DNA of 64,000 nt from contig CAZIKE010000001.1 in assembly GCA_964539775.1 (NCBI GenBank), forward strand, positions 22,013-86,012, given 5' to 3'. Of the stretch, positions 12,839 to 62,615 are shown one piece after another; the stretch's first letter is position 1; each line of letters opens with the position of its first letter. Position numbers and translations under genes: made by a program. This DNA comes from an uncultured Chitinophagales bacterium. Lineage in GTDB: Bacteria; Bacteroidota; Ignavibacteria; UBA10030; UBA6906. The notes under the pieces are model-generated. The model saw only the letters and a program-made list of their open reading frames with translations, was not told the origin of the DNA and did no database searches.

Positions 12839-12856
12839 TCTGCATGGAGGTGCGGT

Positions 12857-14405: not shown

Positions 14406-14434
14406 AGATTCCCCTCTTTGCCGGAGCCTGCTCG

Positions 14435-14463
14435 TTGCATCTCGCAACGGTAATCTCTATATT
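14435..14463 (+). promoter_or_regulatory. sigma70-like promoter candidate (TTGCAT-N17-TATATT) for rfaE genes
   Basis: -35 at 14435..14440 and -10 at 14458..14463. The -35 lies inside a small palindrome, CGTTGC-N5-GCAACG. Confidence 0.45.
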
Positions 14464-14500
14464 CTCGCACACTACAACAGGTTAAGGGGGAGTGTATTCT

Positions 14501-15508: not shown

Positions 15509-15984
15509 TGGGGAAAGTGCTTTCTCTGACGGCTTTGCTGAAGGTTCGGGCAACGCTCCGCAAACAGAAGAAGAAAGTCGTCTTCACGAACGGAACGTTC
15601 GATATTCTGCACCGCGGCCACGTCGAGTATCTGACGAAGGCCAAAGCGCTGGGCGATGTCCTTATCGTCGGATTGAACACCGACGCTTCCATCCGCCGGA
15701 TCAAAGGCCCGCAACGCCCCATCAATAGCAACCGCGACCGGGCGGCGGTGCTTGCGGCGCTTGAAGCTGTTGACTATATCTGCTTCTTCGGTGAGGACAC
15801 GCCGCAGCGACTGATTGCCGCGCTGGTGCCGGATGTGCTGGTAAAAGGGGCAGACTGGAAGGTGGACGCAATTGTGGGGAAAGATATTGTGGAGAAGCAT
15901 GGCGGCGTGGTGAAGACGATCCGCCTGACCCGGGGTCGCTCGACCACGAACGTCATCCAACGCGTTCTGGACGCGTATCGATGA
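15508..15984 (+). CDS. D-glycero-beta-D-manno-heptose-1-phosphate adenylyltransferase (RfaE domain II / HldC-like)
   Basis: 158 aa. The cytidylyltransferase-fold motif FTNGTFDILHRGH is present. TGATG overlap with the kinase gene. Confidence 0.9.
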   Translation: MGKVLSLTALLKVRATLRKQKKKVVFTNGTFDILHRGHVEYLTKAKALGDVLIVGLNTDASIRRIKGPQRPINSNRDRAAVLAALEAVDYICFFGEDTPQRLIAALVPDVLVKGADWKVDAIVGKDIVEKHGGVVKTIRLTRGRSTTNVIQRVLDAYR

Positions 15985-16073
15985 GTGTCGAAGGATGACA
16001 ATCCTTCTCCCCTGACTATTCATCAACAAAGCGGTGGGTGCCCTCCAGGGGCAGGCCGCAGTGGGAAAGAGCG

Positions 16074-35174: not shown

Positions 35175-35342
35175 TAGGCTTGAGGCTATCCACCGCATCA
35201 TTGTGACTTCACGGCTTGACTTTGAATGTTCATTTACCCAATTTTGAATCGAGACAACTCAAGGAGATGGCCCCCGCCCCATGCTACAGTGCTTCATAAC
35301 TTCACTATAACGCAAGCCGATAATCTTAAAGAGAGGCATGTC

Positions 35343-36380
35343 ATGAAAATACGTTGGTCAGCCGTCGTGGTGTTGATGTTTGCCGTCGTCGTGACGTCGA
35401 TGGGGGGAGGCATTGCGAAGTACGCCGGTGAGTTCATTTCGCTCGGCGTCGGCGGGAGGGCACTTGGCATGGGAGGCGCGTTCGTTGCTCTGGCAAATGA
35501 CGTGACCGCGGGGTACTGGAATCCGGCCGGACTTTCCCGCATCAACTATCCGCAGATCGCATTGATGCACGATGAGCGCTACGGCAGCCTGGTGAATTAC
35601 GATTACGGGGCGGTGGCGTTGCCGGTGGGGCCGACCACAAGCTGGGGCCTCAGCGTCATCCGTCTCGGCGTGGACGACATCCCCGACACGCGCAAAGCAG
35701 GCATCGACGCAAACGGCAATTATACCGAAGACCCCAACCAGTTTACACGCATCGACCCGAGTCGTGTTACCTACTTCAATGCTGCCGACTGGGCGTTCTA
35801 TCTCACCTACTCAAAGAAGCACTCCGAGAATTTCTCCTACGGTGCAAACCTTAAGGTCATTCGTCGCGAGCTGGGTGACGCCTCCGCAACGGGCATTGGC
35901 CTCGACATCGGTTTGTGGTACAGCCTCACCGACAAGATCGTTCTGGGAGCAAATCTCCAGGATGTGACCACGACCTTCCTTGCATGGAATACAGGAACGA
36001 ACGAGCTGATTTCTCCTACGATGAAACTTGGGTCGGCCTACTTCATTGAAGCTCTCGGCGGACGTTTTGCACCGGCGGTGGATTTCGACATCCGCTTCGA
36101 GAACCGCAAGTCTGCCTCCACCTTTGCGCTCGGTCCGGTCAGCTTCGATGCGCACATCGGTACTGAGTTTCTCTTCAAAGATGCCGTTGCCCTCCGCGTC
36201 GGCTACAATGATGTGAAGCAGGTGTCGTTCGGTGCCGGCTTGCGCCTGCCGAAGCTGCACATCGACTACTCCTTTGCGCGCTTTGCGCAAGCAGCCGGCG
36301 AGCGTCTCGATGACACACACCGCATCTCGTTGATGTTCACACTGGAAGCTGAGCAGTTCAGGCGAGTGGACGGCTATTAA
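35343..36380 (+). CDS. PorV/PorQ-family outer-membrane beta-barrel protein
   Basis: ATG 35343 gives a signal peptide, then AGEFISLGVGGRALGMGGAFVALANDVTAGYWNPAGL, which matches my recollection of the PorV/PorQ (T9SS-associated, FadL-like) N-terminal signature. Confidence 0.6.
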   Translation: MKIRWSAVVVLMFAVVVTSMGGGIAKYAGEFISLGVGGRALGMGGAFVALANDVTAGYWNPAGLSRINYPQIALMHDERYGSLVNYDYGAVALPVGPTTSWGLSVIRLGVDDIPDTRKAGIDANGNYTEDPNQFTRIDPSRVTYFNAADWAFYLTYSKKHSENFSYGANLKVIRRELGDASATGIGLDIGLWYSLTDKIVLGANLQDVTTTFLAWNTGTNELISPTMKLGSAYFIEALGGRFAPAVDFDIRFENRKSASTFALGPVSFDAHIGTEFLFKDAVALRVGYNDVKQVSFGAGLRLPKLHIDYSFARFAQAAGERLDDTHRISLMFTLEAEQFRRVDGY

Positions 36381-37508: not shown

Positions 37509-39707
37509 TCACTTCGTCGTCAACTCCACGACACCGTTCCATTCTGGCGGGGGAGGAGTGCGTTTGAATTGTTTCGCTCGCTCCAGATGGAGTTGGGTCG
37601 GATAATCGTGAGGACGGATGCGCAGCGCCTCCAGGAACTTCGGGATCGCTTCCTCCCACTCCCGGCTACGATACAGATACAATCCCGCCGTATAGAGCGA
37701 AAGGAACCGCTCGAGCGCGGGATCGAGTGAGCCATCGAGTCGCTGCAACAGTTCGAACGTCCGCAGTGGCTCGGAGCGCCCTTTGACGGCAATGAGATCC
37801 AACTCTCTCCCGATGATCCGGTTCTTCACTCGTTCATACGTTGCCTCGCTCACCATGATGCCGGTGCGATACACCTTGTTCGCTCCTTCCAGACGCGACG
37901 CGATGTTGACGCCGTCGCCGATCACGGTGTAGTCGAACTTTCCGATGCCCCCCATGTTTCCCACGACCATGTCGCCCGTGTTGATGCCGATCCGTACATG
38001 CAGCATGGGTTTGCCCTCGCCGCGCCACCGTTCCCTAATCGCGGCGAGTGTGTGCTGCATGTCGAGCGCGCTGCAACATGCCCGTAGTGCGTGATCGTCC
38101 TGCGGTAACGGGGCGCCCCAGAACGCCACGATCGCATCGCCGAAAAACTTGTCGAGTGTGCCGTCATTCTGCAGAATGATGGTTGTCATCTCGTTGAAAT
38201 ACTCGTTCAGCAGGCTTACCAGCTCTTCCGACGGCATTTTTTCCGAGATTGTCGTGAACCCTTCGATGTCGGCAAACATCACGCTGAGTTCCTTCCGTTC
38301 TCCGCCGAGCTTCAATTTCTCCGGGTGGAGAATCAACTCTTCCACCACCGTCGGGTTCACATACGTACTGAACATGGATTTGATCATCAGGCGCTGTTTC
38401 CGTTCTGTCACGTAGTGGTATGCCGTACTCGCAACGTACGCAATGACAACTCCTACCATCGGTCCAACCGCCGCCATGACAATGTTGTATGTGGTGAACA
38501 GGTGCACCGCCATGGCGGCAACAACAATCACTTCCACGGCCACGATTAGAAATCCAACCAACTCCAACACGAAGTGCCGCAGGCCCCGACTGCTGCGCAG
38601 AGCCGAGGTTGCATAGAACGTCAGGTACGAAAAGAAGACTATCAGGAGAAAGTCGACCAGCACGGGCAGCCTTCGCAGAAACTCGCCGCGCAGCACACTC
38701 TCGATGACGTTGGCATGAATCTCCACCCCATACATGAGATTCTCGCTGTGCACCGAGGGCTGTGCGAGCGCCACGGGAAAGAGATCATGGTCTTCGGGCA
38801 TCGTCGAACCGACCAGCACGATTTTGTCCTTGAACGTTCCGTCGTACTTGTATCCGAAATCGGGATCGCTGAAGGTATTGATCTCGTGCCCAGTTGTCGC
38901 TTCCTCATTCGTCGTAACTGTTTCGTCGTCCAGTACATCAACAAACTGAATGCGACGAAATGTGCCGCTCGGCCCGTACAGGTTCATGAGGAACGAGGAG
39001 GCATCATACTTTGGGATACGTCTCCCGGCAAAGAGAAACTCGCTCTCGTGATTGTCGGCAGTGCTCAGAGGAGGAAGACCGAGGAACTTGTTCAGCACGG
39101 CAAAACTGAAGGTTGGAACACGCGTCGTGTCTCCCGTTCCGTCGGCCCCGACATAGAGCGCTTCCCAGTACGGATTATAGCGCCGGTACACTCCATCCGC
39201 ATCGTTGCGGATGTTGACAAGGCCCAAGGCGCTGTCGATGCCGAAAAACTGGTTGCCGTAGTTTTCTTTCGTGCGCTTGATCTCGTACGTGTGTTGTTGT
39301 GCATCCATCTTCCCTGCCAGCACAACAAGTCCCGTCTCGCGAAGAGCATCGCGGAAGGCATCATCGTTCGCCGGATCGTAGGCATCAGGACCGGTGAGAA
39401 TGATATCGATGCCGACCGCTTTCGCTCCAGCGCTCTTCAGGTTGCGAACGAGATGGGCATAGTAGGCACGGGGCCAGGGCCAACGCGAGGAGAGAGATTT
39501 GAACGACTCGTCGGAGACTTCCACAATCACCACGTGGCTCGATTCGGGTATGGCGGGATGTTTGCCTCGCTCGCGGAAGCGATAATCCAGGGAGGCAAGC
39601 TCCAGGCGCCCAACAATCCCAAGCTGCAACACATCTTCATGGGCCACCACAATCGTGACGACGGCTGCTGCAAGGGCAACAAAAAATTTGCGCAGGCGCG
39701 GGTTCAT
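37509..39707 (-). CDS. CHASE2 sensor-domain class III adenylate/guanylate cyclase with C-terminal TPR-like tail
   Basis: 732 aa. N-terminal TM, then a periplasmic CHASE2-like region (..VVIVEVSDESFKSL..RWPWPRAYYAHLVRNL..GAKAVGIDIIL), then three TM helices. The cyclase core follows (SVMFADIEGFTTISE, DKFFGDAIVAFWGAP, GINTGDMVVGNMG, TVIGDGVNIASRLE), and then a TPR-like C-terminus. Confidence 0.88.
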   Translation of the reverse strand: MNPRLRKFFVALAAAVVTIVVAHEDVLQLGIVGRLELASLDYRFRERGKHPAIPESSHVVIVEVSDESFKSLSSRWPWPRAYYAHLVRNLKSAGAKAVGIDIILTGPDAYDPANDDAFRDALRETGLVVLAGKMDAQQHTYEIKRTKENYGNQFFGIDSALGLVNIRNDADGVYRRYNPYWEALYVGADGTGDTTRVPTFSFAVLNKFLGLPPLSTADNHESEFLFAGRRIPKYDASSFLMNLYGPSGTFRRIQFVDVLDDETVTTNEEATTGHEINTFSDPDFGYKYDGTFKDKIVLVGSTMPEDHDLFPVALAQPSVHSENLMYGVEIHANVIESVLRGEFLRRLPVLVDFLLIVFFSYLTFYATSALRSSRGLRHFVLELVGFLIVAVEVIVVAAMAVHLFTTYNIVMAAVGPMVGVVIAYVASTAYHYVTERKQRLMIKSMFSTYVNPTVVEELILHPEKLKLGGERKELSVMFADIEGFTTISEKMPSEELVSLLNEYFNEMTTIILQNDGTLDKFFGDAIVAFWGAPLPQDDHALRACCSALDMQHTLAAIRERWRGEGKPMLHVRIGINTGDMVVGNMGGIGKFDYTVIGDGVNIASRLEGANKVYRTGIMVSEATYERVKNRIIGRELDLIAVKGRSEPLRTFELLQRLDGSLDPALERFLSLYTAGLYLYRSREWEEAIPKFLEALRIRPHDYPTQLHLERAKQFKRTPPPPEWNGVVELTTK

Positions 39708-42148
39708 CAGTACTCAAGCCGGTACTTCAAACTCCAGAAATCGTCGTTGGGTATTCCTTTGTTGTGGAAGTAGCTGTACTGGAGCAGCACGTACATGTTC
39801 GGTCGGACATTCCATTGCGCCGCGCAGTCGAACGTAAAGCGAGAAAAATCCCCAAACGTTGGACTGAAGGAGATCGAGACCGCCGCAATGTCCTGAACAA
39901 AACTGTACCTGCCGTAGGCAAGCACGGTAGAATAGTTCAGCCGCGTGCGTGCCGATGACCCCGGCGAAGGAAACTCGTTCACATTCAGTGTATAGCCCAG
40001 CGTTGTTTGCAGGGGAATGGCATAACGTGTATGAAGCGTGCTGGAGACGGAGATGTTTTTGACGTCGAGATTGCGCCGGGTAAAGTCATTCCGGAACGAG
40101 GTCGAGACACTCACCGACGCGATATGGTGCGCCGCGTAGGTGAAGCGCTGCATTGCATGGAGATAATAGCGGTTCGTTTTGTCGTTCACTGCGCTGATGG
40201 AGTCGGGTCCCGTGATCATCAGATTGTTGACATTGGCGAAGTGGGTGTAGCCAACGCTGATGCTGGGGAGTTCCGGCGGGGGGTCGTACGTCAGGGCAAC
40301 ATTTACCGTGGTGAACCGGGTCGTCGTCGCTTTCGTCTTGCTCGTGTTATCGTGCAGCCGCTCGTAACCGAGTGTCACGAACATGTTCTGCTCCGACAAC
40401 CGGATGCGATCCATCAGATTGAAACCGGCCACGTCGGTACGCAGAAACGTTTGGCCGAACGACATATAATCGCTTCCGCGATGAATGTAGCTGGCCTTGA
40501 AGGCGTTATCAAAGTAGTTCAGCGCAAGGCCCACGTCGTACGCGAACGTCGAGAGTTTCTTGAATGAAAGGGGCCGGAGATTGTCGTTGACCGTGATAAA
40601 GTTCTTGAGGATGTCTCTCGCATCCTTGATGGCAGCAGCATCCTTCTTGTACACGGTGTCGATGTAGGCATCGGTGAAGTTGCCGCTGGAGATGTCACTG
40701 TTGAAAGCACTGAACGCCGCCTGCGCGGTCAGCTCGATTCTGTTCATGTCGAATTTCGAGACGAGATCCGTTCCCACCACAAGATTTTCCTGCGGTCGGG
40801 TACCAAACGTGATGGACCGGGTATCGTCCTTTGCCTTGAGCCATGTGAAGCCGATCTGGTACTTTTCGCCCGAACCGAAGCTCGGCCGCACGATGAAGAT
40901 GTCCCGTGCGTACGTCCCGTACGTATATTTCCCCCACGTGAGGGAATCGATGCGGGCAAAGGCGGCAAAAGGATCCGCCTGCTGCTCGAAGCCAAGCTGG
41001 TTGACCGGTATGATTTTCACCAGCGCACCCTCCACGGCTCGCGTTGTTTGCCCTACCGTCAGGTCTACGTTGAACTTGCCCAGACGCACCGACGTGTTCA
41101 GGCCCCGTACCCGCTTGCCGCTTAGAATCAGATTGGGATAGCTCGGATAGCTGTCTCCGTACCCAATGAGCAGCCAGTACGATTCGAGCGACGCGTAGTA
41201 GCGGTTCTGTGGTTGACGCGAGGGTAACTCGTCGGAGGTGACAAACACGTTGGCGTTGAAGCGCCAATCCCCTTGACTGCCACTGAACCGGGCGCTGCCG
41301 CGATTGTACCAGGTTCGGACGTTGCTCACCTTCTCGTTGCGCGATTCGAGATCCACACTGCCGGTGGAGATGAACGGCTGATAGGGCAGCGAAAGCGGTT
41401 CCGGTTCGCCCGCAACATAGAACTGCGTGCTCGCCTGGCGGTGAAGATTTCCCTGACGGTTATACAGCAACACCGTTACCCGGTGCCTGCCGGGCTTCAA
41501 CGACAGATTGTGATTGCTCGGCACATAGACGAGAAGGTCGCCGGTCATCACAGCGTCACTCGATACATCCTTCCCGTCCAGAATGATTTGCGTTGCCCGG
41601 CGAACAACCACCGAATCCGCACGCAGGAGCGAGACGGAAACAACAACATCGGTGGGATCGTACGTCGCGTTCAGTTCGGGGCTCAAGAACACGACCTGCA
41701 GATCGTCCTCCCTCTTGACGACGGGCATGTGCAAGGTACGTGATGGCGGGCGCTCCAGGGGATCGGTGCTTTCGCTGAGCGGATGCGACTCAAGCCCGCC
41801 CGATCGTTTCACCAACACCAGGTAGTATTCAAGATACGGCGGCCGGACAACCCCGGGCGGCACGACGATGAACGCGGTGTTACCTCGCAGGTCCATTTCC
41901 CGCCGGTTCCAGCTTCCTTCGCCGAATGGGCGGTACACAAAGTACGCGCGCTCGATTGTTTCACCCCGATACAAATCGACGCTGACGGTGAGCGGTGTTT
42001 CGCTCACGGCTTCGGTTGGGCTGATGGTGGCCACAAGTGATGAAAGCTGTGCAAACGCTGGCAGAGGAAAGGTGAAGCAACAGGCAAGAAAGAGGATGCG
42101 GACGCAGAGCAGAACCCTGCGCCCGCGATCGCGGATGGCAAAACTCAT
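39707..42148 (-). CDS. large outer-membrane protein: N-terminal Ig-like modules plus a ~550-aa beta-barrel, family unassigned
   Basis: 813 aa with a signal peptide (..FPLPAFAQ), beta-sandwich-like N-terminal third, long alternating-strand region and a C-terminal ..WSLKYRLEY aromatic terminus. ATGA overlap with the FecR-like gene and 1-nt TGATG overlap with the cyclase gene. Confidence 0.7.
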   Translation of the reverse strand: MSFAIRDRGRRVLLCVRILFLACCFTFPLPAFAQLSSLVATISPTEAVSETPLTVSVDLYRGETIERAYFVYRPFGEGSWNRREMDLRGNTAFIVVPPGVVRPPYLEYYLVLVKRSGGLESHPLSESTDPLERPPSRTLHMPVVKREDDLQVVFLSPELNATYDPTDVVVSVSLLRADSVVVRRATQIILDGKDVSSDAVMTGDLLVYVPSNHNLSLKPGRHRVTVLLYNRQGNLHRQASTQFYVAGEPEPLSLPYQPFISTGSVDLESRNEKVSNVRTWYNRGSARFSGSQGDWRFNANVFVTSDELPSRQPQNRYYASLESYWLLIGYGDSYPSYPNLILSGKRVRGLNTSVRLGKFNVDLTVGQTTRAVEGALVKIIPVNQLGFEQQADPFAAFARIDSLTWGKYTYGTYARDIFIVRPSFGSGEKYQIGFTWLKAKDDTRSITFGTRPQENLVVGTDLVSKFDMNRIELTAQAAFSAFNSDISSGNFTDAYIDTVYKKDAAAIKDARDILKNFITVNDNLRPLSFKKLSTFAYDVGLALNYFDNAFKASYIHRGSDYMSFGQTFLRTDVAGFNLMDRIRLSEQNMFVTLGYERLHDNTSKTKATTTRFTTVNVALTYDPPPELPSISVGYTHFANVNNLMITGPDSISAVNDKTNRYYLHAMQRFTYAAHHIASVSVSTSFRNDFTRRNLDVKNISVSSTLHTRYAIPLQTTLGYTLNVNEFPSPGSSARTRLNYSTVLAYGRYSFVQDIAAVSISFSPTFGDFSRFTFDCAAQWNVRPNMYVLLQYSYFHNKGIPNDDFWSLKYRLEY

Positions 42149-42846
42149 TGCTGCTTGTATTTGATCTCGATCCGTTTCTTGTTCCCTTTTCCGTCGTCCA
42201 GTTCAATGTCCAGGCGGTTCTCCTGCTCGGCGAGTTGCGCCGATGCTTCGGCTGCTTGCTTCTCCTCCGGTGTCGAGAGCCGCATCTGCACCTTCCCGTC
42301 ACGCGTCGAAAGGCCGGTATAGCCCGCACCGACATCAACCGACTGCGTCGACACCTTGTTCGTCAGCCGTACAAGCCCCTCGAGCACAATGAGTTTGTCC
42401 GCCGAATCGGATGCTGTAAACTGTCCGCTCGTTCCCCGGATCGACGCCACAGATGTTGGCGATGTGAAACGGAATTCTTCCCCCTGTTGCTGCTTCCTGA
42501 TAATGAACCCGATAACGCCGCGCTGCACCTCGGCGGATTTCGAAAACGCATTGCCATCCTGCACTCCTGCAATCAGCACTTCGGTCTTCTCGCGCACGCG
42601 CAGCATGCTGTTGTCCTTGAACTTGATGACCGCAACGGACTTCTCGCCTGTCCTGAGGCGCTCGCCCGATGCGAGCACTTCGCCTCGTTGTGCAGGTTGC
42701 CAGTCTTTTCCCACCTGCATCCGCATGACATTGAGAATCACTTTGCTGATCAGCGCAATGGCCGAATCGCCTGCAGGGGGCGCGGCGCCCACCGCAAGCA
42801 ATCCGGTCATCAGTATGATAACACTCGATCGCGTTGGTGTTTTCAT
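42145..42846 (-). CDS. FecR-domain periplasmic protein
   Basis: ATG 42846 is preceded by GGAGG and gives a signal peptide. The pattern ..VILNVMRMQVGKDWQPAQRGEVLASGERLRTGEKSVAVIKFKDNSMLRVREKTEVLI.. is FecR-type (PF04773-like). Confidence 0.7.
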   Translation of the reverse strand: MKTPTRSSVIILMTGLLAVGAAPPAGDSAIALISKVILNVMRMQVGKDWQPAQRGEVLASGERLRTGEKSVAVIKFKDNSMLRVREKTEVLIAGVQDGNAFSKSAEVQRGVIGFIIRKQQQGEEFRFTSPTSVASIRGTSGQFTASDSADKLIVLEGLVRLTNKVSTQSVDVGAGYTGLSTRDGKVQMRLSTPEEKQAAEASAQLAEQENRLDIELDDGKGNKKRIEIKYKQQ

Positions 42847-42866
42847 TGTACCTCCCCTTTCCAAGA

Positions 42867-43931
42867 CTATTCCAGATTCACCGCGCCGACCGCTTCCGGA
42901 TTCGAGCGGATGTCATTCAGCACCCTCAACAATTCCGTCAGCGAGATCGGCGATCCGTTCAACCGATAGGTGCCTGTAGGGGAGAGATTTTGCGCACGGA
43001 TTTGATCGAAGATCGATTTGTACACCGGCGGGAGAGATCGCTCAAGGTCCTGCAGCAGCCAGGCCAGAGATGACGAGCGCGTCGTGGAGATGGAGAACGA
43101 CCGGAGCGCGCTGCGCAGTTCGAGATTCGTCCCTCCGGCCGCACCGACAAGCCCCGTCACGTACCACACGTAGGTCTTTCCCGGCTGCAACACGCGCGCA
43201 GTGGTGGGATAGCGCAGCGACCGCGTTTCTACGGTTGCGGTATGGTGGGGTGTGCCGCTTGCCGTTTCTTCAAGACTTCGTTGCCCCGGAAGCTTCTCAA
43301 AGATCGCAATGGTTGCCCGCGGCCCGTCGTACTGCCACTCGAACAGCGGAAATCCCTCCGTCAACACCTCGCCATCCTGCGGCGCGAGCAGGACAGGCGT
43401 GGAAGGGTTCGTGAGGATGAACGTGAACTGCCTTGTGTCGGTGTCGGATCCGTTGACTTCGCGGACATTCACCGTGAAGATATAACTGCCGGCGGGCATC
43501 GAACCGCTCGGCAGGGCGATCTCCAGGAATTTTGCTTTTGCGTCGTTGTTGAAGATGTAACTTTCCTGCGGTATGCCGCGCCCTCTGCCTAACTCCAAGT
43601 TGGTGACGGTGCGCGTGCGCTCGATGGTAAACGGTACGGAAATGAAACGCGCGGCATTCTCATAGCGCTCGCCGCTCGCCAACAGGACGTCGAGGTTGAT
43701 CGTCATGACCGCCTGTATGGTCCGTGGGGTTTGTATCGTTATCGTGAACAGCCACTTGGGGGTAGTGGAGTTCAGATAGTCCAGGTCGTTAATCGTCAGC
43801 GAGTTGACCGGTGCTGTGACCGTGGTGACCGTGATTTGTGCGTGGGTAACCGACAGATGAAGAGAGAAGAACAGAACAACGAGCAGCAGCCATTTCCCCC
43901 CATTGCAAACCCTTCGAAGAAATCGGTTCAT
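42867..43931 (-). CDS. secreted hypothetical protein with beta-sandwich modules
   Basis: ATG 43931 gives MNRFLRRVCNGGKWLLLVVLFFSLHLSVTHAQ (signal peptide). It is the first gene of the CHASE2 operon. It contains the module PVLLAPQDGEVL..FPLFEWQ...LQPGKTYVWYVTGL. Confidence 0.65.
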   Translation of the reverse strand: MNRFLRRVCNGGKWLLLVVLFFSLHLSVTHAQITVTTVTAPVNSLTINDLDYLNSTTPKWLFTITIQTPRTIQAVMTINLDVLLASGERYENAARFISVPFTIERTRTVTNLELGRGRGIPQESYIFNNDAKAKFLEIALPSGSMPAGSYIFTVNVREVNGSDTDTRQFTFILTNPSTPVLLAPQDGEVLTEGFPLFEWQYDGPRATIAIFEKLPGQRSLEETASGTPHHTATVETRSLRYPTTARVLQPGKTYVWYVTGLVGAAGGTNLELRSALRSFSISTTRSSSLAWLLQDLERSLPPVYKSIFDQIRAQNLSPTGTYRLNGSPISLTELLRVLNDIRSNPEAVGAVNLE

Positions 43932-43983
43932 AGGTTTCCCCTTCCTGACTTGTGGACGTCCAGACAATATCCCCCTGCGGCAA

Positions 43984-44012
43984 ATGATAACAAAAACTGC
44001 GATTGATAGCAA
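43984..44012 (-). promoter_or_regulatory. sigma70-like promoter candidate (TTGCTA-N17-TATCAT) for the four-gene CHASE2 operon
   Basis: On the reverse strand, -35 lies at 44012..44007 and -10 at 43989..43984, about 50 nt upstream of ATG 43931. Confidence 0.45.
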
Positions 44013-44101
44013 TAACAACTTCCGACCACGTGCCTGCCATCCGAAGAGAATCCCTTTCTCACAGACTCTCTTCCCGGCCGCCCCCGTGGAAAAGGCAACG
44101 A

Positions 44102-45406
44102 TTAGAAGTTCCGTATGTCGTTATACACCGCAAACGCCATAAACACCAACAACAGCACGAACCCTGTGCGCTGGATTGCGAGCTTGAGCTTTGTCGGAAT
44201 CTCGCGTCCGATGATGCCCTCCACGATCAGGAAAATAAGATGTCCGCCATCGAGGGCAGGAATGGGAAGGATATTGAGAATGGCGAGGCTGACGCTGAGT
44301 AAGCCCATGAACTGAAGGTACACTTCGATGCCGACATCGAACGATTCTTTGGCGAACTTCCCGATGCGGATGGGACCAGCAAGCGATTCAGAGAAGGACA
44401 CCTTGCCGCGGATAAGACTGATCACGCCGGAGATCGTTCCGGCAACCACCTGCCGAACGTCTCGGGCACCTTGCCCGATCGCTTCCAGGACCGTGTACTC
44501 CGTCTTCTTTATCGGCCCGGTATAGCCTGCGGAGAACTCGATGCCGATCTGCCCCTTCGGTGTTGGTGTAATGTTCCCTGTGAGCACGGTGTCGCCGCGC
44601 TTCCATTCGATGGCCAGTGGCTTCCCTGCATTACTCTTGATCGTCTCGACGATGCGAATGGCTTGCACAGGGCGCCCGGCAATCGTCAGAATGCTATCGA
44701 GGGGCCGGATGCCCAGTTGCTCGGCCGGCATTCCCTTCGTGACGTTCTTGACCACAACAGCGAAGTGCGCGGGCAGGAGGCCAAAATCGGATTCCGCTTT
44801 GGCGTCGAGGGGCGCGCCGTGCGACCGCACCTGCACCTGCTGGCCGTGACGCTCGACGACAAAGCGCAACTCGCTTCCGATGTTCTCTAGGTAAATGGCG
44901 CGACGCAACCCGTCCCAATCGGCGACGGGCTTGCCGTTGACGCTCAACACCCTATCGCCCGGTTTGAAGCCCGCCGAGTCGGCAACGCTTCCTGCAAACA
45001 CGAATCCGACTTCTGTCGTGTCATAGACGGTGCGACCGTGCACATAGGCCAGCGCACTATAAATCCCGAGTGCCAGGACGACGTTCATGATGACACCGGC
45101 AGAGATCACAATGATACGCTGCCAGATGGGTTTGGCCCGGAATTCCCACGGCTGCGGCGGCTTGTTGATGAACTCCGTGTCGAAACTCTCATCGATCATT
45201 CCCGCAATCTTCACATAGCCACCAAAGGGAATCCACGACACGCAGTAATCGGTGTCGCCGATTTTCTTGCCGAATGCCCGCGGCGGAAAACCGATTGAGA
45301 ACACATCCACCCGCATACCGCACAGCTTGGCCGCGATGAAGTGACCGAACTCGTGCACAAACACCAGCACGCCCAGGATGACGATCGTCGATATCAAGTA
45401 ATCCAT
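44102..45406 (-). CDS. rseP: RIP metalloprotease RseP (site-2 protease)
   Basis: 434 aa. HEFGHF zinc motif in TM1, PDZ region and the C-terminal NILPIPALDGG motif. Confidence 0.93.
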   Translation of the reverse strand: MDYLISTIVILGVLVFVHEFGHFIAAKLCGMRVDVFSIGFPPRAFGKKIGDTDYCVSWIPFGGYVKIAGMIDESFDTEFINKPPQPWEFRAKPIWQRIIVISAGVIMNVVLALGIYSALAYVHGRTVYDTTEVGFVFAGSVADSAGFKPGDRVLSVNGKPVADWDGLRRAIYLENIGSELRFVVERHGQQVQVRSHGAPLDAKAESDFGLLPAHFAVVVKNVTKGMPAEQLGIRPLDSILTIAGRPVQAIRIVETIKSNAGKPLAIEWKRGDTVLTGNITPTPKGQIGIEFSAGYTGPIKKTEYTVLEAIGQGARDVRQVVAGTISGVISLIRGKVSFSESLAGPIRIGKFAKESFDVGIEVYLQFMGLLSVSLAILNILPIPALDGGHLIFLIVEGIIGREIPTKLKLAIQRTGFVLLLVFMAFAVYNDIRNF

Positions 45407-45422
45407 GATCTTCCGTCCTTCC

Positions 45423-46586
45423 CTAATGAACCGTGGCAGCTACCTGGTGCACGAATGCACGCGTTTCCCGATCAACAGCGACGATCTCCTCGAACGTGGC
45501 GTTCTGCCTCGGCGTGTGTGCCTGTAACGCATCCTCGATCAACTGAGGAATTGCGGAAAAGGGAATTTCCTCGTTCAGGAACTTCTGCACCGCAACTTCG
45601 TTGGCAGCGTTCAGCACCGCGGTCGCGCTTCCCCCAATCTCCAACGCTTTGAAGGCAAGAGCCAGACATCGGAACTTTTCATAATCAGGCTCGTCGAACG
45701 TCATCTGCTGCACGCGTGAGAAATCCAGTCGCTGATACGGCGCAGCAGGCCGTTCCGGATACATCAGCGCATACTGAATCGGAATTTTCATATCGGGTAT
45801 ACCGAGCTGCGCCTTGGTTGAGCCGTCCTTGAACTCCACCATCGAGTGAATGATAGATTGAGGATGAATGACGACATGGATTTTCTCGGGAGGGAAACCG
45901 AAGAGCCAATGCGCTTCGATGACCTCAAGCCCTTTGTTCATCAACGTGGCCGAATCGATCGTGATCTTATTTCCCATGCGCCAGGTTGGGTGATTGAGCG
46001 CGTCGCGCACGCTGATCGAATGGAATTCCTCTTTCGGGAGCAAGCGAAATGGCCCGCCGGAAGCTGTCAGAATCAGGCGCTCAACGGAGGCGAGATCCTC
46101 CCCCCGCAAGCACTGCAGGATGGCGCTGTGTTCGCTATCCACCGGCAGGAGACGGATGCCGCTCTTGCGAACTGCATTCATCATGATCTCGCCCGCAACC
46201 ACAAGCGTTTCCTTGTTCGCCAAGGCAATATCCTTCCCTGCCTCGATGGCGCGCAAGGTTGGCTTCAGGCCTGCAAATCCCACAAGCGCACTCACGACGA
46301 TGTCCACGTCATCCCGTGTGACGATCTCACACAGCCCTTCTTCACCGACGAGCAGCTCCGTAGCCCCATTGAGGTACTTCCCCAGCACCGACGCGTTGCA
46401 TTCTTCCAACACAACAACTCCGCGAGGCGTGAATCGTTGCACCTGTTCCTGCAGCAATTCAATGTTGCGATGCGCCGTCAGGTATGTGACGCGGAACCGG
46501 TCAGGGAAATGCGAAATGACTTCGAGTGTGCTTCGCCCGATGGAGCCTGTCGAGCCGAGAATCACTATGTTCTTTTTGATCTTCAC
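45423..46586 (-). CDS. dxr: 1-deoxy-D-xylulose-5-phosphate reductoisomerase
   Basis: 387 aa. ILGSTGSIG NADPH loop, ..LPVDSEHSAI.. and ..HPTWRMGNKITIDSATLMNKGLE.. motifs. Confidence 0.95.
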   Translation of the reverse strand: MKIKKNIVILGSTGSIGRSTLEVISHFPDRFRVTYLTAHRNIELLQEQVQRFTPRGVVVLEECNASVLGKYLNGATELLVGEEGLCEIVTRDDVDIVVSALVGFAGLKPTLRAIEAGKDIALANKETLVVAGEIMMNAVRKSGIRLLPVDSEHSAILQCLRGEDLASVERLILTASGGPFRLLPKEEFHSISVRDALNHPTWRMGNKITIDSATLMNKGLEVIEAHWLFGFPPEKIHVVIHPQSIIHSMVEFKDGSTKAQLGIPDMKIPIQYALMYPERPAAPYQRLDFSRVQQMTFDEPDYEKFRCLALAFKALEIGGSATAVLNAANEVAVQKFLNEEIPFSAIPQLIEDALQAHTPRQNATFEEIVAVDRETRAFVHQVAATVH

Positions 46587-46847: not shown

Positions 46848-47396
46848 ATGATGCGCTCCCGCAATCTGACAATAACGCTCCTTGTGATGGTTGCGTGTAG
46901 TTCTTTCGGCCAAACAGTGACCTCTACTGACGAAGGACACTGGATTGGGCTTGCAGGTGGAGTTATCGGAGGCGAGAGTCGTTTGACGGATCGTTGGACA
47001 GTCAGGGCAACGTACGACTGGCGCTGTGACAAGTTCTGGTCATTACCTTTTGAGGCTTCGGCCTTCAGGAGAGTTTCGACCAGGTCTGATGGAACCCAGT
47101 TGCACAGGCGTGTTTCAAGCATACTTGCTCTGAGTATCGCGTTGAAGGTTCGCTTCCGTTGGGGACGCCCTGGCACAGATCTCTTTGCACAGGCTGGTGT
47201 TGGTGCAGGATCAATGTATCCGGTCATACACTACGCCTACGGTGTCGCATATGCAATCGCCGAAAGGGTCGCTATCACGCTTCAAGTGAGACGCCATACT
47301 GCCAATCTTGAAATAGACAACAATTTTTACACACTTGGTGTGAACGTGAATATCACGCCGGATAGGTTACGTGAAGAGGACCTCAGCGACAAGTGA
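46848..47396 (+). CDS. small outer-membrane beta-barrel protein
   Basis: 182 aa with a signal peptide (LLVMVACSSFGQ) and alternating beta pattern. Confidence 0.6.
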   Translation: MMRSRNLTITLLVMVACSSFGQTVTSTDEGHWIGLAGGVIGGESRLTDRWTVRATYDWRCDKFWSLPFEASAFRRVSTRSDGTQLHRRVSSILALSIALKVRFRWGRPGTDLFAQAGVGAGSMYPVIHYAYGVAYAIAERVAITLQVRRHTANLEIDNNFYTLGVNVNITPDRLREEDLSDK

Positions 47397-47462
47397 GAGG
47401 GAGGGCTCTGTGCGAATCGGTTTTGCATGTTCATTCTGCCGCAGCGACGGGTTGAGCTTAGC

Positions 47463-49319
47463 ATGAGCCGAGGAATCGTTTTATCGTTGTTGATTCTGTT
47501 CATGCATGTGTTCATTGCATCGGTGTACGCACAGGACACGAACGCTCAGTTCCGCCTCGCCCAAAGCTATGAGCAGGGAGGTGATTTCGAGAACGCCGTT
47601 GTGCTCTACCGCGACCTCTACACGCACGAGCCTTCCAACTACATGTACTTCGACGGCTTGCGCCGTTCGCTTCTCCAGCTCAAACGCTACGATGAAGTGA
47701 TCGGGCTGGTTCGTCACCGACTCGCTTCCTCTCCTAACGATGCCAACCTGCTCTGCCTGCTGGGCAGCGCGCTGTACCAGTCGGGAAACGAAAAGGAGGC
47801 CGATGCAGCATGGGAGCAGGCCATTGCCACCGAACCTGCAAACCCAAACGTGTATCGTCTCGTGGCAAACTCGCTCCTCGAAAACCGTCTTCTCGACAAG
47901 ACCGCAGCAGTCTACCGCCGTGCACGCACAGCCTGCAACGACCCGAATCTGTTCACGCTCGATTTGGCACAACTGCTCGCTGTCAGCATGGATTACGGTG
48001 GAGCAACGACCGAGTACCTGCGTTACCTTGCCCAAGCGCCGATGCAGTTGCTGTACGTACAGAACCGCATGGCACAGTTCACCGGCAAAGAAGAAGCGCG
48101 CAATGCTGCTATCAACGCCGTGCGAGAGGCACAGCGTGCGTCCAGGGATGTGAACCTGTATCGTCTGTTAGGCTGGCTGCTCATGGAAGGCAAGCGCTTC
48201 GACGAGGCGTTCGAGGTGCACACAACCATTGACCGCCTCGCGAACGCCAGGGGAGCCGAGCTGTACGCATTCGCGGAGCGCGCGTACAAAGAGGGAGCCT
48301 TCGATGTCGCTGCCCGCGCATACAAGGCAGCCATCGATGCGCCGCTGCCGCCGCAACGGCTTCCGTACGCCAGGTTCGGCTACGCGCTTGCGATGAAGGA
48401 GCTGACGGTACGCGCAGATACGATCCCGGTTTCCCAGCCGTCGGGGGGGACCATTCCGGAAACACAGTCGCGCTACGCCACAGCCATCGATGATTTTCGG
48501 AAGATCGTGGAGGAATATCCCAACACCGAGTTCGCAGCACGCGCGGCATTCCAGATCGGCCTCATCCAGTTCGAGAAGTACTTCGACCTCGATGCTGCAC
48601 TTGCCTCGTTCACGAGCGTGCTGCAGAGCCTCCCTGCCGCCTCCTCGATCCAGCATGACATCGCCATTAAGATCGGCGAAGTACTGACAGCGAAGGGAGA
48701 CACGGCACAAGCGATGCTCTGGTTCCGGAAGGTCGTCGTCGCGCCTACGGCAACACCCGACCAGCAGGATGAAGCGACGTATCGCCTTGCCGAAGTGCTC
48801 TATTTTTGCGGACACTTCGCCGAGGCAATGAGCAGTCTCGAGTCCATCAGCACAAATCTGAAAGCAGACTACGCCAACGATGCCCTGCTGCTGTATGCGT
48901 TCCTGCAGGAAAACACGATGACTGCCCCGGCGCCGTTGAAGGATTTCGCCCGCGCAGATTTCCTCACACGTCAGAAGAAATACTCCGAGGCAATCACGAT
49001 CTTTCAATCGTTGGTGGAAAAGTATCAGCAAGCGTTGTTCGTGGATGACGCGCTGCTGCGGATTGCCTTGCTGCAAACGCTCGCCGGACGCTACGCGGAT
49101 GCACTGCTCACCTATCAACGGCTCTTGCGTCAGTTCAAGGAAAGCAGTATTGCACTGGATAAAGCACAGTTCAACATGGCCGAGTTGTACGACTATCGCC
49201 TGAAGGACAAGACGCAGGCCCTCGCCGCCTACGAGCGCCTGCTTGCCGAATATCCACAGTCGCTGTTCACCGAGCGCGCACGCAGGCGGATCCGTGAACT
49301 GCGCGGAGATTCATTGTAA
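47463..49319 (+). CDS. periplasmic TPR-repeat protein
   Basis: ATG 47463 gives the signal peptide MSRGIVLSLLILFMHVFIASVYAQ. TPR-like helical repeats run throughout, and the C-terminal part resembles YbgF/CpoB-type TPRs. Confidence 0.75.
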   Translation: MSRGIVLSLLILFMHVFIASVYAQDTNAQFRLAQSYEQGGDFENAVVLYRDLYTHEPSNYMYFDGLRRSLLQLKRYDEVIGLVRHRLASSPNDANLLCLLGSALYQSGNEKEADAAWEQAIATEPANPNVYRLVANSLLENRLLDKTAAVYRRARTACNDPNLFTLDLAQLLAVSMDYGGATTEYLRYLAQAPMQLLYVQNRMAQFTGKEEARNAAINAVREAQRASRDVNLYRLLGWLLMEGKRFDEAFEVHTTIDRLANARGAELYAFAERAYKEGAFDVAARAYKAAIDAPLPPQRLPYARFGYALAMKELTVRADTIPVSQPSGGTIPETQSRYATAIDDFRKIVEEYPNTEFAARAAFQIGLIQFEKYFDLDAALASFTSVLQSLPAASSIQHDIAIKIGEVLTAKGDTAQAMLWFRKVVVAPTATPDQQDEATYRLAEVLYFCGHFAEAMSSLESISTNLKADYANDALLLYAFLQENTMTAPAPLKDFARADFLTRQKKYSEAITIFQSLVEKYQQALFVDDALLRIALLQTLAGRYADALLTYQRLLRQFKESSIALDKAQFNMAELYDYRLKDKTQALAAYERLLAEYPQSLFTERARRRIRELRGDSL

Positions 49320-49334
49320 GATGAGGAGGGAGAA

Positions 49335-50630
49335 ATGAGAAAGCTCCAGCAACGGTTCTGTCTCGCCGCCATCGCAGCGGCCGTGCTCTTGCTTGCGAGC
49401 GTTCCGGGAACATACGCGCAGGGAAAGATTCTGATTCCGATGGATCTGACGCAAACCGATCACCTCAAAGCCTACGGCATCGCGTACTGGTCACTCACCA
49501 AAGGCATTGAGATCGATTGGTTGTTGAACTACCGCGGCGGTTCGTTCCTGGTGGACAACCACGAGATCATCGCAGCAGAGTGCCGTATCCGCGGGGTTGC
49601 ATTCACGCAGATCAGCGCCACCGATGCTGCGCAGATTTATGCCGAAGTCCAACGCGAGGACAACAACATGGACGTGATCCGTTTGGAGAAGGCACCGAAA
49701 GTTGCGGTGTACGTTCCTCCGGGCTTCCAGCCGTGGGACGATGCGGTGACGCTGGCGCTGGAGTATGCCGAGATTCATTACGACAAGGTGTGGGATGATG
49801 AGGTGATGGCAGATAAACTTCATGAGTACGACTGGCTCCACCTGCACCACGAGGATTTCACCGGGCAGTACGGCAAGTTCTACGCCTCCTTCGCACAGGC
49901 AAGCTGGTACATCGAACAGCAGGTAATGCTGGAGAGGGAAGCAAAGAAGTTGGGCTTCAAGAAAGTGTCTGAGCTGAAGAAGGCAGTTGCACGGAAGATC
50001 AAAGAATACATTGCGAGCGGCGGATTCATGTTCGCCATGTGCTCGGCCACGGACACGTACGACATCGCCCTTGCTGCGGAGAACACCGACATCTGCGACG
50101 TGATGTACGACGGCGATCCACCCGACCGCGATGCGCAGCAGCGGCTCGACTATTCCAAAACTCTTGCATTTACCAACTTCACGCTCGAGCGGAATCCGCT
50201 CCGCTACGAGTACTCGGACATCGATCAGCCGCCGAGCGATTTGTTGGGCTTGCAGAATCCGGAAACGGACTACTTCACGCTCTTCGAATTCTCCGCCAAG
50301 TTCGACCCGGTACCCACGATGCTGACGCAAAACCACGTGAACGTCATCAAAGGATTCCTCGGCCAGACGACGAATTTCAAGAAGAGTCTTATCAAGAACA
50401 CGGTCACGATTCTTGCAGAGAAGGAGGGAGTGGATCAGGTGCGGTATCTGCACGGCAATTACGGACGCGGAACCTTCACTTTCTACGGCGGTCACGACCC
50501 CGAGGATTACCAGCACGCCGTCGGCGACCCACCCACCGATCTTTCGTTGCACAAGAATTCGCCGGGCTACCGACTCATTCTTAACAACATTCTCTTTCCC
50601 GCTGCGAAGAAGAAGCAGCAGAAGACATGA
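49335..50630 (+). CDS. secreted protein of unknown function, GATase1/DUF4159-like signature
   Basis: 431 aa with a signal peptide. It begins ..GKILIPMDLTQTDHLKAYGIAYWSL.. and contains YDWLHLHHEDF...IKEYIASGGFMFAMCSATD. From memory, homologues in Bacteroidota are often labelled 'asparagine synthetase B', probably wrongly. Confidence 0.6.
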   Translation: MRKLQQRFCLAAIAAAVLLLASVPGTYAQGKILIPMDLTQTDHLKAYGIAYWSLTKGIEIDWLLNYRGGSFLVDNHEIIAAECRIRGVAFTQISATDAAQIYAEVQREDNNMDVIRLEKAPKVAVYVPPGFQPWDDAVTLALEYAEIHYDKVWDDEVMADKLHEYDWLHLHHEDFTGQYGKFYASFAQASWYIEQQVMLEREAKKLGFKKVSELKKAVARKIKEYIASGGFMFAMCSATDTYDIALAAENTDICDVMYDGDPPDRDAQQRLDYSKTLAFTNFTLERNPLRYEYSDIDQPPSDLLGLQNPETDYFTLFEFSAKFDPVPTMLTQNHVNVIKGFLGQTTNFKKSLIKNTVTILAEKEGVDQVRYLHGNYGRGTFTFYGGHDPEDYQHAVGDPPTDLSLHKNSPGYRLILNNILFPAAKKKQQKT

Positions 50631-50714: not shown

Positions 50715-51332
50715 ATGAAAAAACTCATATTCCTCGCCGCAACACTGCTGGTCCTTTCGCCCGTGTCACACGCCGCAAGTCCCGTGCGGTTCGGCGTCCA
50801 GGCGACCGCGGCAAACGTCAACGTCCCAAAGCCGCTCAATGAGATCTATGGATTCGGCTACGGGGGTGGAGTCCATCTCGATTTCAATCTTCCGGTTCTT
50901 TTGTCGTTCAGGCTCCAGGGCGACTATGTTCGCTTCTCCCCCGATCAGGGGAAGTACCAGCAGTTGCTGGCATCCTTGGTGGGTGGGACGGTCGCAAGTG
51001 ATTTTTCCATTGACGGGGGAGCGATCAGCCTCTGGTCGGTGTATGCCAACGTGAAGTCAAGCTTCCTGCCGCTTCCGCTGATCTCTCCGTACATAACGGG
51101 CGGAGCCGGTGTTGCCAACCTCAGCTCTTCGGACGCAACGATAAAATATCAGGGACAAACCGTTACGGGCGTTCCGGGTGTGGCCGGTGAAACAAAATTC
51201 TCTGCCAACCTCGGAGTGGGCGTTGATGTGAAGGTAGGCGTGGAGCTGTACGTGGAGGCCCGCTACACGTGGATCTTTACGTCGGGAGAGACGAGCACCT
51301 ACGTTCCCGTCTCCATCGGAATCACGCTCTAA
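50715..51332 (+). CDS. small outer-membrane beta-barrel protein
   Basis: 205 aa with a signal peptide (LLVLSPVSHA), an OmpA-beta-barrel-like strand pattern, and the end ..YVPVSIGITL. Confidence 0.65.
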   Translation: MKKLIFLAATLLVLSPVSHAASPVRFGVQATAANVNVPKPLNEIYGFGYGGGVHLDFNLPVLLSFRLQGDYVRFSPDQGKYQQLLASLVGGTVASDFSIDGGAISLWSVYANVKSSFLPLPLISPYITGGAGVANLSSSDATIKYQGQTVTGVPGVAGETKFSANLGVGVDVKVGVELYVEARYTWIFTSGETSTYVPVSIGITL

Positions 51333-56609: not shown

Positions 56610-56666
56610 GGTGGTCTCCTGTGCTACGGTGGTAGTGGATGGTGAGGCGCAACGACGATGGGCGTC

Positions 56667-57335
56667 TCAGTTGGTCAACGCCCACACGACAATGTTCGTT
56701 CCGAAGCGCAGCGCTTCCTCGCGTTTCTCCGGAGGATCGTTGTGGACGTCGGGATCTGTCCAGCCATCGCTTGGGTTACTCTCATATGTGTAGTACACAA
56801 CAAGTCGCCCGTTGTAAAAAAGGCCAAAGCCCTGCGCCGGTTTCTTGTCGTGTTCGTGTGTCTTCGGCGGCCCGCTGGGGAACTCGAACTGTGCATGGTA
56901 GATGCCGTGGCTGAAGGGAAGCTCCACCAATTCCTGCGCGGGGAAAATCTTCCTGATCTCGCGCCGGAAGGCTTTGTCCATGCCATAGTCGTCGTCGGCG
57001 TACAGGAAGCCACCGTTTTGCAGGTACGTTCGAAGGCGCCGCACCTCCTGTTCGCTGAACGAAATGTTGCCATGCCCCGTCATGAAAATGAATGGATATG
57101 TGAAGAGCTGATCGCTGTTCACATCCACATACTCATACGTCGGCTCCACGATGATGCCGGTATGTTCCCTGACGAACTTGAGCAGATTTACCTCAGCGGA
57201 CTGGTCGTTGTACCAATCGCCGCCCCCGGAGTACTTGAGACGGGCAATCTTGAAGGCACTGGATACGCCGGGTGTTTGCGCAGACGCTTCTCCGCAAAGG
57301 GTGAATACAACGAAACACCATAACACCTTCTTCAT
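56667..57335 (-). CDS. DUF4159-domain secreted protein
   Basis: ATG 57335 gives the signal peptide MKKVLWCFVVFTLCGEASAQ, then FKIARLKYSGGGDWYNDQSAEVNLL..YPFIFMTGHGNISF..LRTYLQNGGFLYADD, which matches my recollection of DUF4159. Confidence 0.75.
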   Translation of the reverse strand: MKKVLWCFVVFTLCGEASAQTPGVSSAFKIARLKYSGGGDWYNDQSAEVNLLKFVREHTGIIVEPTYEYVDVNSDQLFTYPFIFMTGHGNISFSEQEVRRLRTYLQNGGFLYADDDYGMDKAFRREIRKIFPAQELVELPFSHGIYHAQFEFPSGPPKTHEHDKKPAQGFGLFYNGRLVVYYTYESNPSDGWTDPDVHNDPPEKREEALRFGTNIVVWALTN

Positions 57336-62253: not shown

Positions 62254-62615
62254 TTCGCTTTCTCCTGCGGTGCACGCCACTACATTTCTCGCCGCTTCCT
62301 CCACAGATGAGCTGTCCCACTATCCGGTGCCTGCCGTTGTCGTTATGAGATGAGGAGTGAGTGGATGCAGGAGTGGTTGAGGTACGCGCATAGCGAAGCC
62401 ACGCGCCGAGAGTGTCCCTTCGGCGTTAGGCGGCCGGAGGGTGCCCGGCTATGCCGAGGAAGTGCTGAACGCTGTTCAGCGAAGCACGGGAGTCCGACGT
62501 AGTCGGGACGGAGGCGTGGAACGCCCGTCTTCAGCGGCTCGTTGCTGTGTTCCAAATTGAATCTCTCGCCGAGCTTGCGTAGATTGGCTTGAGTTTCGAA
62601 CCACGCTGCTCGCGC

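Follow-up and report, generated by a model that had tools for sequence, protein, structure and literature searches.

A four-component module with a putative NsrA-like but split input feeding a CHASE2 adenylate cyclase, spread among FCB bacteria and built on an unannotated outer-membrane barrel family

We analyzed a 64,000-nt stretch of Ignavibacteria DNA (the window, along which all positions are numbered), in which four minus-strand genes, here called g1 to g4, run from 43931 to 37509. Judged from its sequence, the source of the window is an Ignavibacteriota chromosome, and the nearest relatives of g3 and g1 were found in metagenome-assembled genomes labelled Ignavibacteria or 'Bacteroidota'. 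The g1 stop codon at 42867 is followed by 20 nt containing GGAGG and then by the g2 ATG at 42846, g2 and g3 overlap in ATGA (42148-42145), and g3 and g4 overlap by 1 nt in TGATG at 39707. A sequence-only reading of this stretch had described the four genes and their junctions, and had assigned to them, in order, a secreted beta-sandwich protein, a FecR-like periplasmic protein, an 813-aa outer-membrane barrel and a CHASE2 / three-transmembrane / class III cyclase, with signal peptides on the first three products. The open reading frame (ORF) listing with its translations, direct reading of the junctions, and the domain and structure analyses given below bear out all of these assignments.

The product of g4 matched CHASE2 (PF05226, E = 6.5e-51) and Guanylate_cyc (PF00211, E = 1.6e-25). 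Its hydrophobic segments lie at aa 9-27, 347-365, 383-401 and 409-427; because one transmembrane (TM) segment thus precedes CHASE2 and three follow it, CHASE2 is predicted to be periplasmic and the cyclase cytoplasmic. The nearest solved relative of the catalytic domain was CyaB of Pseudomonas aeruginosa (9.5e-42). Six residues, D480, K520, D524, T594, N601 and R605, were invariant in 72/72 orthologues; they comprise two metal-binding Asp, the substrate-specifying Lys520/Thr594 pair, and the transition-state Asn601 and Arg605. In the established class III scheme, a Lys/Thr pair denotes class IIIb, ATP-specific enzymes. The invariance of Lys520/Thr594 accordingly narrows the output, given earlier as cyclic AMP (cAMP) or cyclic GMP (cGMP), to cAMP as the predicted product, and on these residues g4 should be an active class IIIb adenylate cyclase. 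The tblastn alignments extended to the C-terminal residue 732 of g4 in most Ignavibacteriota loci. The TPR region claimed for this tail is visible as a motif, but scored only 20.9 bits against a TPR_2 cut-off of 27.

The FecR domain of g2 (PF04773) was detected at E = 3e-11, with 44.1 bits against a curated cut-off of 24. Matches to curated families included Lsa33 and LipL45 of Leptospira, and BLASTP aligned g2 with the FecR domain of NsrA, an outer-membrane protein considered further below, at 4e-11. No lipobox, membrane anchor, STN domain or cytoplasmic anti-sigma part was found in g2 by translation, hydropathy and Pfam analysis, and a sequence search of solved structures with g2 returned no match. 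In each of g1, g2 and g3, a single N-terminal hydrophobic segment is followed by an A-x-A-type site before Q, as expected of exported proteins.

The largest product, g3, matched no Pfam or NCBIfam family (Pfam scan at E <= 0.1), and 54 diverse relatives matched no Pfam family at E <= 0.01. Its AlphaFold model (predicted local distance difference test score, pLDDT, 87.7) contains a signal peptide, two N-terminal immunoglobulin (Ig)-like sandwiches and a very large barrel. DSSP assigned 27 long beta-segments and a short hairpin to this barrel, which gives about 26-28 strands, and the C-terminus (...KYRLEY) has the aromatic end typical of outer-membrane barrels. In Foldseek, the top match was MtrB (6r2q_B; E = 1.6e-10, TM-score 0.41/0.50, identity about 8%), followed by pilus ushers and TonB-dependent transporters, with FecA among the lower ones. 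A profile of g3 searched against solved structures gave a sole, weak match, to the Ig-like domain of Porphyromonas gingivalis PPAD (9.5e-05). The barrel carries conserved inserts at aa 382-412 and aa 484-534, the latter with two helices, and the most conserved motifs of the protein (RQPQNRY, AFSAxNSDISSG and TVNDNLRPL) are located in long inter-strand inserts and not in strands. From the parity of loop lengths, these inserts may be extracellular or lumen-filling loops. The best-conserved stretches of g3 include the two-helix insert (window about 40547-40699) and aa 311-318.

A profile search placed 1,881 clusters (at 50% identity) in the g3 family at E <= 1e-3 and 552 at E <= 1e-30. We considered whether g3 belongs to a known class of barrel. 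It is not a FecA-type or other TonB-dependent transducer, as neither g3 nor the 54 relatives contained a plug (PF07715), TonB_dep_Rec (PF00593) or STN domain. Nor is it a ShlB/FhaC/Omp85 protein; there were no POTRA, ShlB or Bac_surface_Ag matches in Pfam, and its N-terminal domains are all-beta.

No Pfam or NCBIfam family was found for g1 either. The AlphaFold model of g1 (pLDDT 90.7) consists of two beta-sandwiches, Ig- or fibronectin type III (FnIII)-like, and a helical C-terminus, and its structural matches were generic Ig-domain ones only. The start codon is the ATG at 43931, preceded by the Shine-Dalgarno-like run GGAAGGGG, and homologue lengths of 351-357 aa agree with this start. Homologues of g1 were found upstream of the FecR gene in Ignavibacteriota loci and also in distant modules. 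With 24-91% identity across loci (tblastn), g1 is the fastest-evolving member of the module. Homology between g1 and the Ig-like N-terminus of g3 was rejected, since hhalign aligned the signal peptides only. A Pfam search for DUF928 (PF06051) gave no match in g1, g2 or g3 at E <= 0.1. At one distant locus (L082, 6137-7287), the g1 homologue is split into ORFs of 79 and 227 aa, possibly by a frameshift, as a pseudogene or through an assembly error. The coordinates of the four genes, their domains and the upstream elements are collected in Table 1.

Table 1. Features of the g1-g4 module and of the region just upstream of it (window positions)
Feature	Position	Strand	Evidence
Promoter-like box TTGCTA-N17-TATCAT, with TG-extended -10	43984..44012	-	Read upstream of g1; motif scan
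11-bp hairpin, possibly a weak rseP terminator, in the spacer from the rseP stop to the promoter box	44043..44073	-	Folding
g1, secreted protein of 354 aa: signal peptide, two Ig/FnIII-like sandwiches, small C-terminal helical domain	42867..43931	-	
g2, periplasmic FecR-domain protein of 233 aa	42145..42846	-	PF04773
FecR domain of g2, aa 63-160	42367..42660	-	Pfam
g3, outer-membrane protein of 813 aa	39707..42148	-	Model; aromatic C-terminus
Two N-terminal Ig-like sandwiches of g3, aa 39-245, expected to be periplasmic	41414..42034	-	DSSP of model
Barrel of g3, aa 260-812	39713..41371	-	DSSP, Foldseek
g4, inner-membrane CHASE2 / 3-TM / class IIIb adenylate cyclase (predicted) of 732 aa, with short TPR-like tail	37509..39707	-	
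CHASE2 periplasmic domain of g4, aa 26-362	38622..39632	-	Pfam, hydropathy
Class III cyclase catalytic domain of g4, aa 472-651	37755..38294	-	Pfam, residues
Sub-threshold TPR-like motif of g4, aa 670-701	37605..37700	-	TPR_2

We scanned genomes with the g3 profile and obtained 80 loci (L002-L081), all of them Ignavibacteriota-like, in which the four proteins were placed by tblastn. In 72/72 loci that have a downstream flank, the gene directly downstream of g3 encodes a CHASE2 cyclase, and g1 and g2 lie directly upstream of g3 in every upstream-flanked locus except L073. The order g1-g4 holds with g3 identity down to 32%, and in L062 the g1 gene is present in a diverged form (E = 7e-13). Expressed as the minimal possible gaps, g1 and g2 are never more than 31 nt apart (70/70 loci), and g3 and g4 lie within 30 nt of each other in 68/72, while the g2-g3 gap of the relatives is looser (often 20-140 nt, median about 65 nt). 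The statement that the genes are packed without room for internal promoters is thus correct for this window, but does not extend to the family. At L003, a second and distant CHASE2 protein (profile E = 4.7e-16) is encoded at 18390-20249, about 4 kb downstream of the module. A search of the rest of the L003 locus with the FecR profile gave no FecR gene, and a FecR neighbour is therefore not universal for CHASE2 genes.

The wider neighbourhood is conserved as well. Directly upstream of the module lie dxr and rseP, the latter encoding a site-2 protease (Peptidase_M50 with PDZ), at window 44102-46586 (-) and in about 60/80 loci, and homologues of a porP-like gene lie downstream in 55/80. Because this context is also syntenic, the 80 Ignavibacteriota loci alone are insufficient proof of functional coupling. 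In Proteobacteria, bamA sits after rseP, and RseP cleaves the FecR of Fec-type systems. A BamA-like role of g3, which its position after rseP would suggest, was rejected on the absence of POTRA and Bac_surface_Ag matches and on a number of barrel strands far above 16.

Because the wider context is syntenic within Ignavibacteriota, we inspected eight places (L082-L088 and L090) that harbor distant relatives of the barrel, at 24-30% identity, taken from the g3 profile search. A g1-like gene, a FecR gene and the barrel gene occur together in seven of the eight (L082-L085, L087, L088 and L090); in L086, FecR and barrel genes are present and the sequence upstream of FecR is too short to reveal a g1-like gene. 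Where the gene after the barrel was annotated, it encodes a CHASE2-Guanylate_cyc protein (6/6 places); in L083 and L085, this gene runs off the contig. The flanks differ: ZnuABC and adh_short genes in L082 and L087, a thioredoxin-reductase-like gene in L084, OmpA and PAS-kinase genes in L088, and others in L086 and L090. The porP-like gene was not found in the distant loci, and an M50 gene precedes the module in L090 (3563-4939) but not in L082, L084, L087 or L088. Named members of the distant clusters were Fodinibius/Aliifodinibius and candidate division KSB1. The set of g1, FecR, barrel and CHASE2 cyclase genes therefore stands together in at least three lineages of the Fibrobacterota-Chlorobiota-Bacteroidota (FCB) group and in at least four flanking contexts. 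The retention of the four genes within differing flanks indicates that selection holds the module together, beyond inherited synteny.

We further analyzed the promoter-like box read upstream of g1. Within the window, five sites match the box at 9 of 12 positions, where 3.5 +/- 1.7 would be expected, and the interior of the module genes holds three sites of equal quality on the same strand. As the box occurs here at chance level, it proves nothing by itself. However, in an alignment of the spacers between rseP and g1, which are otherwise diverged, the relatives share TTGCtA/TTGCAA, a distance of 17 nt and TATCAT/TATACT. The pattern TTGCNN-N16-18-TANNNT was present within 250 nt upstream of g1 in 48/66 loci, compared with 3.9% of random windows from the same loci. 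The conserved box lies mostly at -40 to -100 relative to g1 (for example, at -78 in L008 and -50 in L021), and often has ATTT ahead of the -10 element. We accept the box on the basis of this conservation across loci, so that the promoter proposed earlier is supported by the relatives and not by the window itself. The pattern suggests, from the region upstream of one gene, that Ignavibacteriota use housekeeping promoters of the -35/-10 type, in which the -35 element is TTGC, and not the -33/-7 type of Bacteroidia.

The 82-nt spacer, which contains an 11-bp hairpin, folds at -33.1 kcal/mol (z = -1.9). The hairpin lacks a U tract in the window, and a hairpin with a T-run stands at the same position between rseP and g1 in relatives. 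These sequence comparisons lead us to assign to g1-g4 a conserved promoter of their own, although transcription may also read through from rseP. A scan and folding of the region 3' of g4 found no intrinsic terminator. The four genes are probably co-transcribed, and the earlier description of a single conserved, transcription-unit-like module with a component in each envelope layer and a cyclic-nucleotide output is upheld.

A precedent for such an arrangement has been studied experimentally in Sinorhizobium meliloti. There, the CHASE2 cyclases CyaK and CyaD1/D2 are activated in a signal-dependent manner only when the outer-membrane protein NsrA is present, and the cAMP that they produce acts via Clr; a candidate for the signal is uL2, a ribosomal protein of the plant (PMC7529298, PMC13001267). 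In the S. meliloti locus (L001), nsrA (1200 aa) lies upstream of cyaK with a 1-nt overlap, and NsrA consists of a FecR domain (aa 66-160), a TPR region (about aa 370-590) and a C-terminal barrel. The g4 protein shares 31% identity with CyaK across 84% of its length (E about 1e-66 to 1e-68). In both systems, a FecR domain and an outer-membrane barrel are encoded immediately before a CHASE2 / multi-TM / class III cyclase, with the last two genes overlapping by 1 nt; both lack a TonB box, a plug and a sigma factor; and the output is cAMP, as predicted for g4. The likeness to Fec-type logic noticed earlier, a FecR domain paired with an outer-membrane barrel, thus holds and has an experimental precedent in nsrA-cyaK. 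The claimed lack of a sigma/anti-sigma pair likewise stands, in that no sigma70_r2 or sigma70_r4 gene was present among the window ORFs scanned.

The two systems also differ. NsrA is one FecR-TPR-barrel polypeptide, whereas the module divides FecR and barrel between two proteins, g2 and g3, and has no periplasmic TPR by Pfam. The g3 barrel is larger, has MtrB as its nearest match, carries N-terminal Ig-like domains and is unrelated in sequence to that of NsrA. The module here has an extra Ig-like partner, g1, its cyclase ends in the cytoplasm with a short TPR-like tail, and it belongs to a free-living FCB bacterium. Homology between g3 and the NsrA barrel was rejected: BLASTP and a tblastn search against plasmids including pSymB found nothing, hhalign gave a probability of 0.3%, and relatives of the NsrA barrel carry TonB_dep_Rec (PF00593). 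By analogy with NsrA-CyaK, we regard the module as a four-component system in which an NsrA-like but split input feeds a CHASE2 adenylate cyclase; it is spread within the FCB group and includes an unannotated barrel family.

We consider it reasonably likely that the module couples outer-membrane or periplasmic events to cytoplasmic cAMP synthesis, without TonB or a sigma factor; this reading draws on the NsrA-CyaK analogy and on the fusion of FecR to the barrel in NsrA. The barrel g3 would form the surface or outer-membrane receptor part, and the fast-evolving Ig-like g1 may assist it. The soluble g2 would bridge the periplasm and dock on the CHASE2 domain of g4; this contact would alter the TM2-4 bundle, switch on the cytoplasmic cyclase dimer and raise cAMP.

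Several observations weigh against this coupling. Since the g3 barrel is not a homologue of that of NsrA, the analogy is carried by the FecR and CHASE2 parts together with the gene order. A free-standing FecR-domain protein of S. meliloti, SMc02177, is under cAMP/Clr control and dispensable for signal perception (PMC5498481). The locus L073 (9977-14679) has the barrel and the cyclase without g1 and FecR, with divergently oriented genes upstream; it is the only full-flank locus of this kind, and may be a reduced paralogue. To these is added the synteny, within Ignavibacteriota, of dxr-rseP upstream and the convergent porP-like gene downstream.

An alternative that we regard as rather unlikely is that the barrel is a specific diffusion channel, and that g1, g2 or both capture a ligand and deliver it to CHASE2, in the manner of LuxP with LuxQ and TorT with TorS, with no conformational relay from the outer membrane. 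Both g1 and g2 are soluble and exported, with folds of the protein- or ligand-binding kind; by Foldseek, g3 resembles large channels and translocons, and its conserved motifs in long inserts could form a selective constriction. However, FecR is covalently tied to the barrel in NsrA, which favours a physical chain over free shuttling, a barrel of 26-28 strands goes far beyond the needs of a small-molecule channel, and no ligand-binding family was recognized in g1 or g2.

We find it less probable still that g1-g3 build an envelope structure or an export device, and that the CHASE2 cyclase watches its assembly state or envelope stress instead of an external cue. For example, g1 or g2 could be threaded through the barrel or displayed by it, like MtrA in MtrB. 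MtrB, the top structural match of g3, sheathes a partner protein and is likewise very large, both barrels having about 26 strands; the Ignavibacteriota copy follows dxr-rseP amid envelope-biogenesis genes; and g1 evolves fastest, as expected if it is surface-exposed. However, the match to MtrB of the MtrCAB system, at its low TM-scores and identity, is a general similarity of large barrels and may reflect barrel size only, and no cytochrome partner is found here. The module likewise encodes no lipoprotein, type IX secretion tail or secretion ATPase, and its distant copies lack the dxr-rseP context.

That the four genes are neighbours by inherited synteny only, with unrelated functions, is very improbable: the region from a TPR gene and dxr-rseP to the porP-like gene is indeed syntenic across Ignavibacteriota, but the reading is contradicted by the distant loci, where other lineages carry the set between different flanks, as well as by overlapping start and stop codons and by the FecR-CHASE2 and barrel-CHASE2 links in Proteobacteria (L001; PMC5192318, PMC9239204). 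Scarcely credible is Fec-type TonB-dependent cell-surface signalling (FecA-FecR-FecI) with its sigma factor encoded elsewhere, which shares with the module a FecR-type domain adjoining an outer-membrane barrel, a trans-envelope signalling logic and, among the lower Foldseek matches, TonB-dependent transporters including FecA, but is contradicted by the domain tests, in that g3 and its 54 relatives lack plug, TonB_dep_Rec and STN domains, g2 has neither a cytoplasmic anti-sigma part nor a membrane anchor, no extracytoplasmic function (ECF) sigma gene was seen among the window ORFs scanned, and the invariably linked output is a cyclase and not a sigma factor.

Coupling of the envelope to cAMP synthesis also agrees with other published gene groupings. 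The BiofilmReg operon of Burkholderia encodes a response regulator, a LysM-FecR protein, a CHASE2 histidine kinase and a DUF4136 protein (PMC5192318). As in our module, the gene for an exported FecR-domain protein directly precedes that for the CHASE2 sensor, with overlapping or nearly overlapping genes; by contrast, its output is a histidine kinase with a response regulator, LysM is present on the FecR protein, and there is no outer-membrane barrel. In Campylobacterota, a CHASE2 adenylate cyclase cluster comprises the cyclase, a phosphodiesterase, a FecR-domain protein of the outer membrane and a TPR protein (PMC9239204). Compared by description only, it likewise groups a CHASE2 cyclase with a FecR-domain envelope protein in a proposed single pathway, whereas the module described here has no phosphodiesterase or separate TPR gene and possesses a separate barrel and g1.

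Given these reports of FecR-CHASE2 adjacency, the sequence-only reading overstated the case in calling the module uncharacterized. The pairing of FecR, barrel and CHASE2 is known already; what is new is the separation of FecR and barrel, the non-homologous barrel family and the Ig-like g1. The suggested kinship with cyanobacterial CHASE2 genes that adjoin DUF928 and ShlB/FhaC-type barrel genes also failed, as g1 is not a DUF928 protein and g3 has no POTRA or ShlB domain. In the literature found, the CHASE2-DUF928 neighbourhood is represented by one anecdotal case, in Nostoc (PMC5587647).

The remaining genes of the window are housekeeping and envelope-biogenesis genes. The latter include those for a SurA-like peptidyl-prolyl isomerase (712 aa), a TamB/DUF748-like protein (1532 aa), three small OMP_b-brl proteins and a 630-aa TPR protein matching YfiO/BamD-like and Slam-TPR families; envelope-biogenesis genes lie at 10700-13582, 16038-20636, 46848-49319 and 50715-51332. 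Downstream of the module, on the opposite strand, the porP-like gene at 35226-36380 (+) encodes an outer-membrane protein with weak PorP/SprF- and UPF0164-like matches. ORFs of 221-431 aa without a Pfam family at E <= 1e-5 were found at 14309-15553 (-), 49335-50630 (+), 56658-57323 (+) and 62343-63410 (-), the first of which is overlapped by an opposite-strand ORF of 338 aa at 14492-15508.

The question of the CHASE2 input is as old as the definition of the domain, and its sole worked example is NsrA-CyaK of a legume symbiont. That FecR, barrel and CHASE2 cyclase are here rebuilt from separate proteins, and kept across free-living FCB bacteria, points to a general architecture of Gram-negative envelope signalling. 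A large barrel family without a Pfam model, of about 1,900 clusters at 50% identity, thereby gains its first context, and the separable parts allow pairwise tests of the contacts between FecR and CHASE2, FecR and the barrel, and the Ig-like protein and the barrel. More tentatively, and as a possibility that we hold with some doubt, FecR-type domains might be general input partners of CHASE2, with unrelated barrels recruited repeatedly into TonB- and sigma-independent relays to cAMP. If so, the recruited barrels would include the TonB-receptor-like one of NsrA and the MtrB-like one of 26-28 strands described here, whose lumen may hold a periplasmic partner (g2 or g1) in the way that MtrB holds MtrA, and the long-sought CHASE2 'ligand' would be a partner protein and not a small molecule.

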